Source: Eledone cirrhosa
Taxonomy: Eukaryota
Length of the DNA stretch: 64,000 bases
Reading direction: 5' to 3'
NCBI GenBank assembly: GCA_964016885.1
Contig: OZ024740.1
Location: forward strand, 418,686,001 to 418,750,000
Positions 4,745 to 60,970 of the stretch are shown here, one piece after another (the stretch's first letter is position 1; each line of letters begins with the position of its first letter). The notes beneath the pieces were generated by a model. That model was not told the DNA's origin and did no database searches. It saw nothing but the letters and a program-made list of their open reading frames with translations. Position numbers and translations under genes: made by a program.

Positions 4745-6081
4745 GTCACTGACTGTGTGTCCCAGATGACACTCGCCTCTTACCCAGGGATAAAGGGTCA
4801 GGCCGTCTGGTCCCTCACCATCACTTCTGGATATTCCAGCAGGCTCCAGAACTGAGGAGATATTTACCCGAGCCAGGGCTCGTTTAATGATCCGTTCATA
4901 ATTGGTGGCAGACGTGTTTTTAAAGTTCTTCTAAAATCAGCAACAAAGCACTCAGCCACATCTGATATAATTTAATTTTTGTGGATATATTAGTATGTAC
5001 TCATACTAGTGCTTATATGCGTGTGAGTGTATACGAGTGAATGCACCGGCCCTTCAAACTCCAGTTGTTCCCTAAACCCAGCCACAGCTGAAGTCCCATC
5101 AAACCATATCACTCACCCCAGCTCTAGGAATGCTCAAGGTTCCTCAATATTTATCCTCTCTTTAGCCCTCCACCCCACATGAAGTCGAGCAGTGTCATGT
5201 ACAATAAGCAGAAGAAAAGAAGGAAGTGTTCCAACTGTAGCATTTCTTCCACCTTTCTTGCATCACCCTGCAATGGTGGCACTGCCCATGCTGCTTAATC
5301 CCCTTGACACTACAGGTGGACACTGGGGCATGGCACAATGGAGACTCAGCCCAGATAGCAACTGCCTGCCTCAGGCAGAGATGGTGAATCACCATCAGAA
5401 TCCCCAAAGCTGCCCACATTTATGTGGCCAAAGTGTTAGCATCGTCCATTGACCAGGCACTTGACACCAACAGCTTGCATGACTGGAACAAACTCAGTTT
5501 TACAACTCTCACACTTGGGATCCTAACGGCAGGAGAGTGTTTGGTCCCCTCCCTGACTTCAAGGCTCAGAAGCTACATCACATCTTGCTGCCACCTTTCA
5601 CCAACTAGCCTCTCACTTCTCCGAGAGAACGTCTCTATGACCGAGTCAATTGTAAACTAATTGAGGGCAATGTTTTTGATGTGGTGTGTGATGGCCTCAA
5701 GTGACCAGACACTTCATACAGCAGATGCTTCCTTAGTCACCTCGCCTCCTAATAAAGCTGGACATGGTAATCGTCTTTAACCCTTTAGCATTTAAACCGG
5801 CTATATCTGGCTAGAATTTTCTTACCTCTTTCTGTTCAAATCGGCCATAACTAGCTACTCATACTGATGTTAAGGTATTGTTCTCAAAATGAATAATATC
5901 AAAATCTCATAGATTCGATATTATGTGAGATAATTATGTAAGATAAAGCCTTTACCACGAAAATACAATAGTATATATAAAGTAATGTAAATACTTAAGG
6001 GTTAACTGCTAGGCAGTATCACATTTTAGAGATGTGTCTAAGACATTATCCCTCAATATTCTCCCTTGTGCACATCTATGG
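4745..6081. mobile_element. Decayed CRE-like non-LTR retrotransposon, continuing at 10176-10340; interrupted by a MITE and the hAT
   Basis: Minus strand 4750-4890 reads IIKRAL...LEP.G..R.DG..PDG.TL.PW (restriction-like endonuclease). Plus strand across the hAT reads YG.P.YL...V.QGD.L...LFAL.V...FN..YL.DATL (RT). The two parts are in opposite orientation. Confidence 0.6.
5777..6005 (+). mobile_element. piggyBac-type MITE; same family at 50740-50954 (opposite orientation) and 56594-56828
   Basis: TTAA-CCCTTT...AAGGG-TTAA termini; three similar copies of ~215-235 bp. Confidence 0.8.
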
Positions 6082-6815
6082 CAGTGGTCACCAACCTTTC
6101 TAAAACCGAGGAACCCTCTAAATATTTTGAATTCTTCACGGAACCTATACAATACAAAACTTTTCAAAAAAAATAATAAAGTATTTATTTATTTTAGTGT
6201 TTCATGCGTGTGTATGTAATCGAACACAATGACTTTTCTGCTGCTGCGCCTCATCAGTGAGTTTAGAAAATCGAGGTTCAACACTAGTTAATGCCAATCT
6301 CATACACTCGTCAATTGCTGACAGTTTATTCCTCTTTGTGCAGATTTCCACCAACTGCGAAAACCTTTCGCACAAGTAGCTAGATGGGAATAAAGTCAAA
6401 TACTTCAATGCAAGTTGGCTGATTTCATTAAACTCCCCAATCAAGAATAAGTCGATCCATAGTTCTTTCTTTCTGCTTTCGAATATCACTTTCAGGTCTT
6501 CGTTTGAATTCAAATCCATCAACTGATGTAAGCATTGTGCAGGTAGTAAATTTTTACAATTTCCAGCGTCATTTTCTGACACTAACTGCTCGATCTCGGT
6601 GGACGGGTTTTTATCCATAAATTTCCGCTAACAATATCTTTTTCCATCAAGTCAAAATAATCTGAAAAACCTGTGGAAAGCACATTTAAATGAGAAAGAA
6701 TAATCTTCTTTAGATTGCTGGAGTCAAAATTTTCTCTTTAAGCTCTATTTCAAGGTTTGAAAGTAATTGTCCGATTCAATTCTTTTTATAAAGATGTTTA
6801 ATTTTGATTGAAAAT

Positions 6816-7152
6816 CATCATCATTTCATTTTACGACCGCTTTTTCCCTGCTTGCAAGGGTGGGACGGGAACTGATTCTGGCTTGATTTCTACAGCTGGA
6901 TGCCCTTCCTAACACCAACCTCATTTACAGTGAGTGCTGGGTGCTTTTTTGCTGTGGCACCTCCACGACCACTTTGCAGTGGAATGATATGGACCCCAGT
7001 CCCTATCATCTCATTTCTACAGCTGAGTAAACTGGAGCAATGTGAAATAAAGTGTCTTGCTCAAGGAAACAACACATCACCCGGTCTGAGAATTGAACTC
7101 ACAACCTTTCGATTGCAAGGCCAATGCTCTAACCACTAAGCCATGTGCCTCC
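6816..7152 (-). mobile_element. tRNA-derived SINE family 2 with RTE-type tail; other copies 13013-13409(-) and 37275-37555(-); related heads at ~11445-11560(+) and 50245-50340(+)
   Basis: Head GGAGGCACATGGCTTAGTGGTTAG...GAGTTCAATTC (A and B boxes), core TCCTTGAGCAAGACACTTT, RTE-like 3' end and (ATG)n tail. Confidence 0.88.
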
Positions 7153-7245
7153 ATGTGTGTATTATTTTATTTTTTACCCAGACTTAATTCAATCTTAGAC
7201 ATTCATTGCTTGTAATGTCTATTAAATATTAACTGTTTTGGTGAT

Positions 7246-7591
7246 CTATGTGCCACTGGCACCATAATGGTTGTTAATGGCATCAATTAATTCTTTCTTT
7301 TTCTTTGCAAAACATTTGATATCATTTTCTCTCATCATTTTTCCTAGTTCAGCCAGTTTAAGTTTTTCCAGCTTTCCCTCCATGCACAATACTTTCAAGT
7401 CTTGGTCAGTAAGTGGACGTTTGCTAGATTCATGTGATGCATCACTTCCTGAAGCTCGCTTCTTCTTGTTATCTGGGTTGTAGTCACTGGGAAAGATGGC
7501 TTCTTTGAATTGATGGATTTCATCTTTAGCTTTCCTATCTATTTTATCATTATCTGGCTTTGTATTGTCAACAAATTTTTCAGGGCATTCC
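7246..7591 (-). pseudogene. XRCC6: Ku70 C-terminal fragment (linker + SAP domain), intron-less 5'-truncated retrocopy
   Basis: PEKFVDNTKPD...FKEAIFPSDYNPD.KKKR...SKRP...GKLEKLKLAEL...KKKELIDAINNHY parallels the Ku70 C-terminus as recalled (D.T.P, FKELVYPPDYNPE, SKRPK, G.L.K, KKQELL.A...HF); 114 open codons to TAG. Confidence 0.85.
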
Positions 7592-10500
7592 TTGAAAATA
7601 TGTAATAAAATTGATTGAAGTAAAAATATCTGCATTGTTACCCTGAAGACACTTATTTAGTTTGTTCAGTTCACCAAAAATGTCTACTAAATAAGTGAGT
7701 TGCACATTCCATTCATTGGTTTCTGATACACTTGCTCTTTCATAATTCTGTTTTTTTAGAAAAACTATTATTTCTTCTCTCAGTTCAAAAACTCTCTTCA
7801 TAGCATCCCCAAAAGACAGCCAACGCACATGATTGTTCAATAACAATCTATTATAATTACTTCCAGAAGATTCACAAATAGATTCAAACATTCTAGAATT
7901 TTTTGCTCTTGCATGGATCAAATTGATAATTTTGACAATGTCTTTCAGCTGGTCATTTAATATTTGAGCATCTCTGTCTTTGAATTTTTTTTAACACAAA
8001 ACCTCTCGATGAATCATACAATGAATTGAAATACAATTTAGGGTCTGTTCTTTAATTTTTGCAATCAAACCAGTCATTGCAGCTGCTCCATCTGTTGTTA
8101 TTGAAGTCAACTTGCTCCAAGATACACCATTTAAAAAAAAATACTCTTCAATTTTATTGAATATATCTTGACCTTTAATTGTGATGTCTAATGCCAGACA
8201 AAACAAATACTCTTCTACTAATTCTTTTTTATCAAGGTCTACAAACCGTACATAAGCAAATTAATTGAGCCTTGTTATTAATATCCGTAGTTTCGTCCAC
8301 TTGCAGTCCAAAACATGGGCTTTTCTTTAGTGCAGTTAGTATCTGATTTTCTATATAAGAAGAAATATCAATTATCCCTCTTTTTACGGTATTTGCTGAC
8401 AATGGTAACTGACTTAATTTTTCTTTGTCCTTAATACTGCAGCTTTCAAAAAGATTCTCTTTAGCAATTTACTGTTCTCCTAATGTAAATGGTTTCTTGT
8501 TTTTACCAATCAAATGTGAAATCTCAAAAGATGTTCTTGTTAAAGCTTTATTTCTATCTGACTTTTTACAAAACAAGTCATACATATTAGCTTGTGATTT
8601 TTTAATGTTGTTTTTCAGCGAAGTAAAGTATTCCAGTGACTTGTTTTTATCATTGGTGTGATTAGTATCAATGTGTCTTTTAAGTTTTGCAGGATTTAAA
8701 CAGCTATTTGATAGAACTTTTGAACATAGCAAACACATGGGCTGATCTGGTGTATCTTTTTTAGTGTCAGCTTTTTGAAATCCATATCTAACATAATCAT
8801 CATGCCACTGTCTAACCTTACTGCTGGTATCTAACTTCAGCTTCTTTGCAGTAGACATTATATCAATGTTATTTATCTACAGTTAACATTTTTAATATGA
8901 CATTAATAAACAAGAGAAATTAACAGTTTTTTTAATTACAAAAAGTACTTAAATTAACTTTAATTTTAGATATTTGGAAAAACTTAACTAGTTAAAAAAA
9001 AATTTTAATTGAAATTTCTCCATTTTAGGATGGCAAACATATTATTTAAAGTCTTATAATAATATTAAAATATTAGGGGTTACTGAAAAAGGTGCAAATT
9101 TATGAACTAGAAGAAATATTTTTCAAAGTCCAGCACTTCCTGCATATACTACTTTAGGGTCGTATTAAATATTATTGGTAATGTAAATATATTTAAATAT
9201 CCGCCATACTAAAAGGTGCAAAAAATGCAAATCAGCTGATAGTGTAGATGTGACGATGGTATTGGAAATTAATTCAGATATCTTCTATCTATTTTGACTC
9301 AAAGTTAGATATAATAGAAGAAGGCTTTAGGCTGCGTTACACATATATTAGATTGGAACAAATAAAGTTTAGTCAAATGTTTATGGACATATATATTTAT
9401 TGTATAAAGTAATTTCTCAATTGTGAATGCAGATGTCATTAAATGAATACATAATTGTGTGGCAAAGTTTATAGTGTATGCATGGAATACAAAATTACCT
9501 TTCTTAGTAGTAAAAACTTTACAGGCGTTATATTTTCTGTGCAAAGTACAACAGAATGTAACGTGTTCTTATTTAGAATTGTCTATGGAACTGGATGCAT
9601 GTTGAAAACGACTAGTAAGCGAGTTCACTCAGTGAGGAAACTTTAGACGACTTTAAAGCTTTTGTGAGGGCAGCAGATTAAAACGTGTTCTCTATTGAAA
9701 ACATTCTACTGAACTTACGTTGTGAGAACAGCGAACTGACCCTGCCTCTTGGCTGAGAGACCTCGCTGAACTGAAGTTTTCAGTTTAAAGTTATGCTGTC
9801 ATCAACCAACATTTACTTGTTCATGATTGGTCAATTTCTAAGTTCAATTAGTGTATTATGAGTAGTAGTCAAATCCTCGGAATTCAGAAAACTATGTCTT
9901 TCCAAGAATTGATGTGAAATTGAAAGTATTCAATTTCCACGAATCTCAGAACAGTGTTTTTCTGCTAATTCAAGTGAGAAACTGAAAGTAGTGTTTTCCA
10001 CGAATTGGAGTGGAGAACCTGTGTACACTACAATAGTACTCGTTCATTTATACATTGCACCTTTTTCAGAAAACCCAAAATATTAATGGTAATGTAAATA
10101 TTTATTTTTTTAAGGAACCCGGAGTTTGTTTTACGGAACCCCAAGGTTTCGCAGAACCCATGTTGGCGACCACTGTCCTATGGGACACCCTGCATACCTA
10201 TGGCTGTTGAGAACATGGTCACTTCTGCCACGTGTCCATCAAGGGGACCTACTTAGCCGGTTCCTCTTTGCCCTGGTTGTTGATGATATTGGCCACTCAA
10301 ACCTTTCACTCTTCAATGTCTGATACCTGGCCGATGCAACTCTGGTTGTGTCTGTTGTTGAGGACCTACAACAAGTTGTTGCAGCCCTAAAAGTGTTCTC
10401 GGTCCTTGTACTGCTGATTTCTTCTGTAAAATTAGAAAGACGGCAACCTGCTTGAGGAAAGAACTCCATGAGTGGCTGTTGCAGCAGATGTTTTGAGCCA

Positions 10501-12942: not shown

Positions 12943-13409
12943 CATACTCTGCTCTGGAAGCATCCTAGCATGGAGGCATCCTAGCTACCATCAGACACAT
13001 ATATATATATACCATCATCATCATCATCATCATCATTTTACGTCCGCTTTTCGCTGCTTGCAAGGGTGGGACAGGAACTGATTCTGGCTTGATTTCTACA
13101 GCTGGATGCCCTTCCTAACACCAACCTCATTTACAGTGAGTGCTGGGTGCTTTTTTTTTTTCCGTGGCACCTACACGTCCACTTTACAGTGTGGGCTGGG
13201 TGCTTTTTGCCGTGGCACCTCCATGACCACTTTGCAGTGGAATGATAGGGACCCCAGTCCTATCATCTCATTTTTACAGCTGAGTAAGCTGGAACAATGT
13301 GAAATAAAGTGTCTTGCTCAAGGAAACAACACATCACCCGGTCTGAGAATTGAACTCACAACCTTTCGATTGCAAGGCCAATGCCCTAACCACTAAGCCA
13401 TGTGCCTCC

Positions 13410-13708
<299 letters not shown>

Positions 13709-37073: not shown

Positions 37074-37552
37074 TAATAATAATAGAATTATGATAATTGA
37101 CAAAGAGAAACAAGCAAGAAGAACAAAAGCAAGGCAAAATGAAAAAAAAAAATGGCAAAAAGGCAAACGAAAGACACAGGACTCCAAGATCTTCAGCCAC
37201 TGAGATGGACTTAGGCAGTTTCAACCCTTAATATATATATATATATATATATTAGTTTATGTATATATATAAGTTCATTCATTTTACGTCCACTTTTCCC
37301 TGCTTGCAAGGGTGGGACGGGAACTGATTCTGGCTTGATTTCTACAGCTGGATGCCCTTCCTAACACCAACCTCATTTACAGTGAGTGCTGGGTGCTTTT
37401 TTGCCGTGGCACCTCCACGACCAGTTTGCAGTGGAATTATAGGGACCTCAGTCCCTATCATCTCATTTCTACAGCTGAGTAAACTGGAGCAATGTGAAAT
37501 AAAGTGTCTTGCTCAAGGAAACAACACATCACCCGGTCTGGGAATTGAACTC

Positions 37553-37588
<36 letters not shown>

Positions 37589-59847: not shown

Positions 59848-60419
59848 CTGAAATAAAAGAGAATAACAAAATATTATAAAAGAATATTATTAAAGAAAGG
59901 GCGGTGGATTGGCTGTATCGGTAGAGGGGCGGACGCCATGCTTTGCAGCAAAGAGTTCAAATCCCGCCGAGGTTAACTTTGCCTTTCATCCTTACAGGGT
60001 CAATAAAATAAAGTACCAGTAATATACTGAGATAATTGCTGGCCTTGTGTCAAAAGTAGAAACAATTATTAAAGAATGCTAAATATCAAACATCAATTCA
60101 CCGAACCCATGCCAATACAGGATAACAGGTATAAAATGATGATGATGATGATAATATTATATATGGCACAAGGCCAGTAATTTGGGGGGAGGAGAAAATT
60201 CATTAAATCAATCCCAGTGTGTTACTGGTACTTTATTTTATGATCCTGTAAGGATGAAAGGCAGAGCTAACCTTGGTGGGGTTTGAACTTAGAACGTAAA
60301 TGGATGTAACTATATGCTGCAAAACAAAGTGTCCGACACTCTACCGATCCACATATTAAAACATACAATTCATTACAGATTAGCATGGGAGGGGGGGCTT
60401 TTCCGAGGCCATAATATCT

Positions 60420-60970
60420 AGAATAAGGACGGGTTGGAAGAAGTTTAGGGAGCTGCTTCCTCTGTTGACAAAGAAGGGTTTCTCCCTGCATACGAAAGGC
60501 CGGTTATATGATGCCAGTGTGAGATGCATGATGCTGCATGGTAGTGAGACATGGGCAGCAACTACAGAGGATTGCAACGGCTGGAGAGAAATGAAGCAAG
60601 CATGCTTCGTTGGTTGTGCAATGTCAATGTGCGTGAACGACCAGGCATAAATGGGTTGAGAGAGAAACTGTGTATAAAAGGGATAAGTTGTGGTGGGCAG
60701 GAGAGAAGACTGAGATGGTATGGACATGTGATGCGCATGGAGGATGATAGCTGGGTAAAGAAGTGCCAAGAAATCCCAGTAGAAGGAAGACGCAGTAGAG
60801 GAAGACCACGAAAAACATGGGCGGAGGTGGTGAGAGCAGACCTCAGATCGCTGAGGCTCACGGAGGAGATGATGAAGGACCGAGACAAGTGGAGAGATGC
60901 TGTGCTGAATAGGACCCGTCCCACTCTTGCAAGCAGGGAAGAGTGGACGTAAGATGATGATGATGATGAT
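60420..60970 (+). mobile_element. 5'-truncated RTE LINE family B with almost no 3'UTR
   Basis: HGSETW, LRWYGHVMR, GRPRKTW motifs; ORF ends TRPTLASREEWT* directly followed by (GAT)n. Confidence 0.88.

Follow-up and report, generated by a model that had tools for sequence, protein, structure and literature searches.

A probable chimeric retrocopy of a Ku70 transcript end and a SINE within a hAT transposon of Eledone cirrhosa

Introduction

How can the end of a host mRNA be copied into a genome when it carries no poly(A) tail? The question is raised by a locus of Eledone cirrhosa in a 64,000-nt stretch of DNA (contig OZ024740.1 of assembly GCA_964016885.1, positions 418,686,001 to 418,750,000 of the forward strand; hereafter the window), where the 3′-end of a Ku70 (XRCC6) transcript and a short interspersed nuclear element (SINE) lie side by side within the transposase gene of a hAT transposon. 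Long interspersed nuclear elements (LINEs) that recognise a specific 3′ tail are described in two reviews as limiting the formation of retrocopies (PMC5470649, PMC3747384). A first-pass annotation, made from the sequence alone, had proposed that the two parts were retrotransposed together as one unit. That proposal, with priming at the SINE tail, fits every test we made. The insert appears to be a real and young chimeric retrocopy, each of whose ingredients has a precedent and whose combination is seemingly unreported. It is probable, in our judgement, that reverse transcription primed at the SINE tail switched to Ku70 mRNA and produced a 776-bp insertion in the hAT element, which was then likely copied a few times.

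A single insertion into the hAT transposase gene

The 8-mer TTGAAAAT is present twice, at 6808–6815 and 7592–7599, where it encloses 776 bp and cannot be extended on either side; the coordinates are those given by the first-pass annotation. The chance of the same 8-mer recurring at a fixed place is ~8e-5 at the base composition of the hAT element. We regard the two copies as a target-site duplication (TSD). In the 5′ copy (7592–7599, 8 bp), the last three letters (7594–7592) are also letters of the Ku70 mRNA and form a 5′ microhomology, and in the 3′ copy (6808–6815, 8 bp), the first two letters could also extend the ATG-repeat tail of the SINE.

Contigs of four of the eight listed public runs (X1, X2, X4, and X5) were aligned to positions 7126–7720; three RAD-seq runs and X3 were left out. 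X1 and X2 represent one DNA sample, X4 another sample with the same species label, and X5 a different organism (organism B). The aligned stretch omits the far flank, which kept SINE contigs from swamping the Ku70 ends, and hence no joints were reported. In 4/4 runs, a hAT contig parts from the window at 7592, and the 30 letters that follow in it are those of window positions 6778–6807; the hAT family therefore has the 8-mer once. When a script deletes the insert, the reading frame continues and the transposase of the homolog P0003 aligns over the join without a gap, so that the predicted empty element, joined across one 8-mer, has been found both in the runs and in the protein alignment. The duplication and the empty site are those expected of a retrocopy.

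The single TSD surrounds the Ku70 part and the SINE jointly, with no deleted target base and no filler. We also looked for a duplication around the SINE alone, an observation that the first-pass annotation had named as fatal to its proposal, and found none, the best candidate being 4 nt long and away from the tail. The target carries TTTT at −11 to −8 upstream, T at −1, and A as the first base of the TSD. Our own version of this pattern matches 72 of 6,570 hAT positions (1.1%), and the same target pattern is described for animal RTE-related SINEs (PMC6007223).

It is thus very likely that the Ku70 end and the SINE were inserted in one event. Two separate events, in which a SINE landed first and a Ku70 cDNA was patched onto its 5′ edge, or a Ku70 retrocopy landed first and a SINE replaced its 3′-end, would draw on a SINE that is very abundant in the genome (1,577 contigs aligned in X1 and 1,620 in X2, mostly on 29 nt of the SINE). 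They would require a base-exact meeting of both ends, and there is no second TSD, poly(A), deleted target base or filler at the locus; the hAT contigs seen at the site are also all empty on the side examined. We consider such a history very improbable.

An assembly artefact, with the order hAT-Ku70-SINE created by a mis-join, is harder still to credit. The hAT-Ku70 join is crossed by none of the contigs listed for the four runs, and the depth in the bin 7586–7605 is fully accounted for without one, which counts in favour of a mis-join and against a genuine insertion. We ascribe the missing contigs, by conjecture, to cleaning of the assembly graph. Against a mis-join stand the exact 8-bp duplication at both independently defined ends, the presence of spliced Ku70 joined to the SINE start in the DNA-sized runs X1 and X2 as well, and record 15, which ends at the last letter common to the mRNA and the target. 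Metagenome contigs, in which octopus DNA is not expected, were also searched for the hAT-Ku70 join pattern, with 0 matches.

The Ku70 cargo is a spliced transcript end

The coding part of the cargo (7246–7591, minus strand) is the 5′-truncated, spliced end of Ku70, comprising the Ku C-terminal arm, the linker, and the SAP region. Its open frame at 7590–7249 holds the 114 stop-free codons that had been claimed, followed by a stop codon at 7248–7246. Homology to XRCC6 is established by matches to residues 500–607 of human Ku70 (E 4e-9, PDB search) and to Pfam Ku_C (E 2.9e-6), and by ~60% identity to Ku70 of Octopus bimaculoides and O. vulgaris; the Pfam scan gave no SAP match in the cargo.

The 3′ untranslated region (UTR; 7155–7245, minus strand) is 91–93 nt long in the insert and is cut 11–13 nt past an AATAAA (7171–7166). 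The earlier description of ~93 nt of UTR with AATAAA and no poly(A) was correct. AATAAA as the transcript end was not, as the longest Ku70 transcript seen extends 139 nt more. A classical L1-type processed pseudogene would have poly(A) beside the TSD, whereas this unit ends in the ATG repeat of the SINE.

That the cargo had been spliced follows from contig breaks. Two contigs of organism B (records 27 and 28) fit 7372–7460 and 7462–7543, and each continues there in unlike sequence. The contigs of X1 and X2 break at 7431–7460, with a residual third contig exactly on that 30-mer (depth 5.6 in X1 and 10 in X2). These breaks place an intron at ~7460–7462 that has no counterpart in the insert, where 7460–7462 (minus strand) would be an exon-exon junction. 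The cargo is therefore a spliced retrocopy that has lost at least one parental intron, as located from the contig breaks, and the description of it as intron-less is upheld. Depth steps in X5 point to a possible second boundary near 7560, in codon 11. In the alignment this codon corresponds to human residue 508, at which we take the human Ku70 gene to have an intron.

The SINE and its partner LINE

The SINE occupies 6816–7154 on the minus strand, co-oriented with Ku70. It is full-length, with a tRNA-like head at ~7143–7086, a tail at ~6870–6816 that is shared with a LINE, and an end in ATG repeats; its first two positions (7154–7153) also fit the Ku70 mRNA. The head scores 28.1 bits against the Rfam tRNA model, just below the 29-bit gathering cut-off (E 8e-4), and motifs that we presume to be A and B boxes lie at SINE positions 12 and 57. 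With this score and these presumed boxes, the element has the tRNA-like head expected of its class. ARAGORN predicted no tRNA gene in the window.

A free full-length copy (13022–13411, minus strand) is collinear with the SINE of the insert and fixes its boundaries, and a free 5′-truncated copy (37278–37556, minus strand) is 96.8% identical to it. These two copies and the tRNA-like head bear out the claim of a complete, co-oriented SINE with an ATG-repeat tail. Both free copies sit in TA repeats, a long one in the case of the first, which also has an internal duplication of ~50 nt.

The likely partner family is represented in the window by a 3′ fragment of an RTE-like LINE (60384–60968, plus strand), which has a tail of ~55 nt and the ATG repeat in common with the SINE. 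The SINE tail and the LINE end at 60915–60968 are 85% identical over 55 nt, as expected of a SINE and LINE that share a tail. The relatives of the fragment lie C-terminal to RVT_1, a domain present in 6/7 relatives scanned, none of which is named RTE; a PHD-finger match was also observed just after the reverse transcriptase domain in 3/7 of them. The protein atlas holds no family name for the LINE tail, and cluster look-ups returned only mis-annotated Capsicum names (4/10). With only the C-terminus in the window, the fragment is consistent with the RTE clade because of its repeat tail, the target signature, and a C-terminal motif that we take to be RTE-like.

In octopus, RTE LINEs are described as potentially active (PMC9115989), and cephalopod SINEs are reported to carry RTE-derived parts (PMC5786205). 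The first-pass annotation had spoken of an L1-independent route to retrocopies. This holds for the present event; it does not hold for the genome, since L1-Tx1 families with recent activity are also present in octopus genomes (Table 1 of PMC13282606 for O. vulgaris).

Template switch or transcript with a SINE

Two routes had been proposed by which the SINE could serve as a handle: template switching from SINE RNA to Ku70 mRNA, and read-through from Ku70 into a SINE at the parent locus. The evidence that bears most directly on the choice is a 2,064-nt contig (record 23) in run X4, which comprises 88 Mb of contigs. It fits 7153–7594 without a gap, with 7 differences in 442 nt. It extends 1,483 nt upstream, in loose letters that translate as Ku70-like; this is close to the ~1,448 nt needed to complete the coding sequence of a 600-residue Ku70 and leaves room for a short leader. 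Downstream of the join, the contig continues for 139 nt in sequence that is not SINE. We read it as a full spliced Ku70 mRNA. A template without the SINE favours a template switch over read-through. This contig shares two letters with the SINE start (7154–7153) and three with the TSD. Both joins are therefore clean: they show short microhomology and lack filler. The switch point lies 11–13 nt past AATAAA, behind CA. In mRNAs, AATAAA precedes cleavage at a regular spacing. A proximal cleavage site at the switch point could offer a free RNA end.

The competing cis route, a form of 5′ transduction, assumes a Ku70 allele with a sense SINE in its 3′UTR, now rare or lost, whose spliced mRNA was primed internally at the SINE tail and entered the hAT element in 5′-truncated form. 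It would yield an identical single TSD and spliced cargo, and several observations speak for it or otherwise weigh against a switch. Among the pieces listed, X1 and X2 show no branch without the SINE at 7153, and the contigs do not give the parent XRCC6 locus in full. In records 5 and 12 the UTR continues without a break into the first 22 nt of the SINE, as it also would in a SINE-bearing parent allele; this overlap is below the 31-letter bridging rule of the contig method. Just ahead of the SINE, the UTR is similar in sequence to the TA/CA-repeat flanks common to other copies of this SINE, which makes a genomic SINE insertion there plausible; the same likeness also fits a longer, hidden homology for the switch. 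The microhomologies are short, being expected by chance at ~0.09 (2 nt) and ~0.03 (3 nt), and the identity of X4 as RNA is our reading of the run, which its record does not state.

Against the cis route stands record 23 itself, from another sample with the same species label, which has no SINE at that place. The missing branch at 7153 weighs little, since X1 and X2 also lack other branches expected of the parent, namely those 5′ of the intron. A further, weak point is that the UTR lacks a T run ~10 nt ahead of a candidate TSD. We therefore hold a switch from SINE RNA to Ku70 mRNA to be the probable origin, with the SINE-bearing allele a possible but clearly less likely source; to all other explanations together we give little weight.

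A template switch would have proceeded as follows. The endonuclease of the LINE would nick the hAT element ~10 nt downstream of the T run, and an RTE-type reverse transcriptase would start on the ATG-repeat tail of the SINE. The SINE would then be copied to its 5′-end, where the enzyme would move to spliced Ku70 mRNA, 11–13 nt past AATAAA, at a junction where 2 nt are shared and no base is added. Next, as is visible in the structure of the insert, 437 nt of Ku70 would be copied, a stretch that includes one or more exon junctions. The reverse transcriptase would stop there and the target would be joined through the 3-nt microhomology, so that a single 8-bp duplication encloses the two parts. 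Judging from contig depth, the resulting non-autonomous hAT element, with both terminal inverted repeats (TIRs) intact, may then have been duplicated, probably by transposase supplied in trans, with several copies of the cargo that share one 5′-end as the outcome.

Copy number of the cargo

Cargo contigs have a depth of 40.7 in X1 and 51.8–53.9 in X2. As a single-copy reference we used ten contigs, or parts of contigs, of low depth (4.5–10). The ratio is 4.5–11.6, or 2.3–5.8 if the references represent single haplotypes. Overall, the cargo is ~2–12 times as deep as single-copy sequence, and mostly 5–7 times, in one DNA sample, a figure that counts for less as evidence of amplification by the stated caveat of the contig method that contig depth is no copy number. 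The high depth stops at 7594, where record 15 of X2 ends and beyond which the mean of record 7 of X1 implies ~7. Relative to the X1/X2 consensus and the mRNA-like contig, which agree with each other, four changes in 328 nt are private to the window copy. Cargo-free hAT contigs are 13.7–15.6 times deeper than the cargo, and the hAT family has therefore expanded. A 43-nt contig piece at 7302–7344 with single-copy depth (6.4 in X1 and 7.7 in X2) was also observed; it may represent a variant copy or a low-complexity sequence that matches by chance.

The evidence for multiple copies thus consists of depth and the shared 5′-end, and from these we consider it likely that the cargo is present at more than one locus, a point that the first-pass annotation did not raise. 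Several copies with one 5′-end are most simply explained by duplication at the DNA level after a single insertion, and a hAT element with intact TIRs in an expanded family suggests itself as the obvious vehicle. That hAT transposition caused the amplification is slightly favoured. Tandem or segmental duplication, or noise in depth, comes not far short of an even chance: depth is a poor measure, no second hAT copy was found in the window, and no flank of another cargo copy was seen. On the other side are the intact TIRs, the expansion of the family, and the difference of ~1% between the window copy and the cargo consensus.

The cargo is most likely a passenger without function. Since the insertion is young, an open Ku70 frame is expected. 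Selection on that frame was considered and rejected; of the private changes listed for the window copy, only two are in the coding part, one silent and the other amino-acid changing. An ATG of the hAT element at 7635 is in frame with the cargo (7249–7635, minus strand), in an open frame of 129 codons, of which 15 are hAT-derived and 114 are from Ku70. A search for the 129-aa hAT-leader-Ku70 protein returned 0/6 candidates. Among the public runs listed as containing the sequence there was no RNA run, a result without bearing on expression.

Relation to known chimeric retrocopies

The closest known systems are the U6 snRNA-SINE/LINE chimeras of platypus and Anolis (Doucet et al., 2015, PMC4476161), in which a host RNA lies 5′ of a co-oriented element, one short TSD surrounds both, the host part is often 5′-truncated, and the element supplies the recognised tail. 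The Ku70-SINE insert has the same layout of host RNA at the 5′-end and retroelement at the 3′-end, co-oriented within one TSD. Partners of the U6 chimeras are Mon-1, AnolisSINE2, L2, and RTE, which provides a precedent for switching from a SINE of a stringent LINE to a host RNA (PMC4476161). Their cargo is an snRNA, however, whereas here it is the end of a spliced protein-coding mRNA, joined to a full-length SINE, in a mollusc and inside a hAT element. The WEIRD, Mg-SINE, and MGL retrogenes of Magnaporthe likewise combine cellular transcripts with a SINE or LINE by template switching and are flanked by direct repeats, but differ in their non-coding cargo, fungal LINE, and recurrent switch sites (PMC2104539).

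Chimeras of mRNA and LINE-1 are known for 17 mRNAs (Law and Burns, 2026, PMC13174262), and in these, too, a single TSD encloses an mRNA sequence with the retroelement on its 3′ side. Their partner is L1, they mostly carry first exons, and they are ascribed to splicing; in contrast, the Ku70 insert takes the last exons and the UTR and joins away from a splice site. Chimeras with mRNA are also known for long terminal repeat elements (PMC5131818). The primate NUKU retrocopies of KU70 derive from the same parent gene, lack introns, and have TSDs (PMC8496227). They are L1-type, poly(A)-tailed, and near full-length, unlike the last 114 codons found here, which show no sign of function.

Two further systems place gene pieces in DNA transposons. 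In Myotis, mRNAs were retroposed into Helitrons, with empty sites, and were multiplied with them (Thomas et al., 2014, PMC4224331), in four cases amounting to 118 copies. Those are poly(A)-tailed L1-type retrocopies in rolling-circle elements; the present case has a SINE tail, no poly(A), and a cut-and-paste hAT element, and its amplification is suggested by depth. Pack-TIRs carry a piece of a host gene between TIRs (Tan et al., 2021, PMC8277862), and multicopy ones are rare (four, or 1.4%, one of them in a frog hAT). They are attributed to gap filling at the DNA level or fork switching. The cargo described here entered by retrotransposition, because it is spliced and has its own TSD. The literature searches returned no RTE-tailed chimera of a protein-coding mRNA and a SINE, and none that lies in a hAT element, though the supplements of PMC13174262, PMC4476161, and PMC8277862 may hold such cases.

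Template switching around tail-specific LINEs has thus been documented for snRNAs and non-coding RNAs, and the present cargo is spliced and protein-coding. The case is young (~1–2% diverged) and resolved to the base; its empty site is seen, and the parent is represented by an mRNA-like contig. It also provides a searchable signature, namely the 3′-end of a gene, a full SINE, no poly(A), and one TSD, which pipelines based on poly(A) would likely miss. If the account given here is correct, host genes can be duplicated in two steps without a poly(A)-reading LINE, and if the depth signal is true, the hAT element would be a cut-and-paste counterpart to the Helitron-retrogene route of bats. In octopods, whose RTE-tailed SINEs are abundant and copied by a sequence-specific LINE, SINE RNA could even be a general launch pad, from which reverse transcriptase finishes the SINE and jumps to spliced mRNAs to yield a class of mRNA-SINE retrocopies without poly(A), the Ku70 case having become a small mobile hAT family with the arm, linker, and SAP region as its cargo; with one event as evidence, we put this forward tentatively, as less likely than not.

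The hAT host element and its surroundings

The hAT transposon (6082–10175, minus strand) is 3,310 bp long without the insert and resembles Buster/Charlie elements, Buster being our presumed subfamily label. As had been claimed, both TIRs are retained (6082–6095 and 10162–10175, with 13/14 letters matching). They are flanked by an 8-bp TSD with a central TA (6074–6081 and 10176–10183, 6/8 matching). The transposase, 30–32% identical to the 602-aa homolog P0003 over nearly its whole length, is broken by frameshifts and stops. A weak zf-BED match was found in the hAT element (Pfam), and weak Dimer_Tnp_hAT and DUF4371 matches in P0003. Short TIRs, 8-bp TSD, BED finger, and transposase together place the element in the hAT class.

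The 5′ part of the transposase (7592–8876, minus strand) breaks off after ...FITYFQ and runs into a stop after four codons of insert sequence, which leaves the loaded element non-autonomous. The 3′ part (6202–6807, minus strand) continues that frame when the insert is taken out, as judged from the frame and the P0003 alignment. The stop rules out an in-frame transposase-Ku70 fusion, in agreement with the statement of the first-pass annotation that the cargo is not in frame with the transposase.

The hAT element itself apparently lies inside an old, decayed non-LTR element (5400–6081 and 10176–10330, without a Pfam match), which would make a three-level nest; a remnant after 10200 resembles what we take to be a reverse transcriptase motif. 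A cargo-free hAT contig of 1,535 nt (record 24) in the mRNA-like run X4 indicates that the hAT family may be transcribed. The same family is also present in organism B (X5), where it is nearly identical, empty at this site, and of much lower depth. Ku70 of organism B shares only 0.04 of sampled words, and it is possible that the hAT family is recent or has been horizontally shared.

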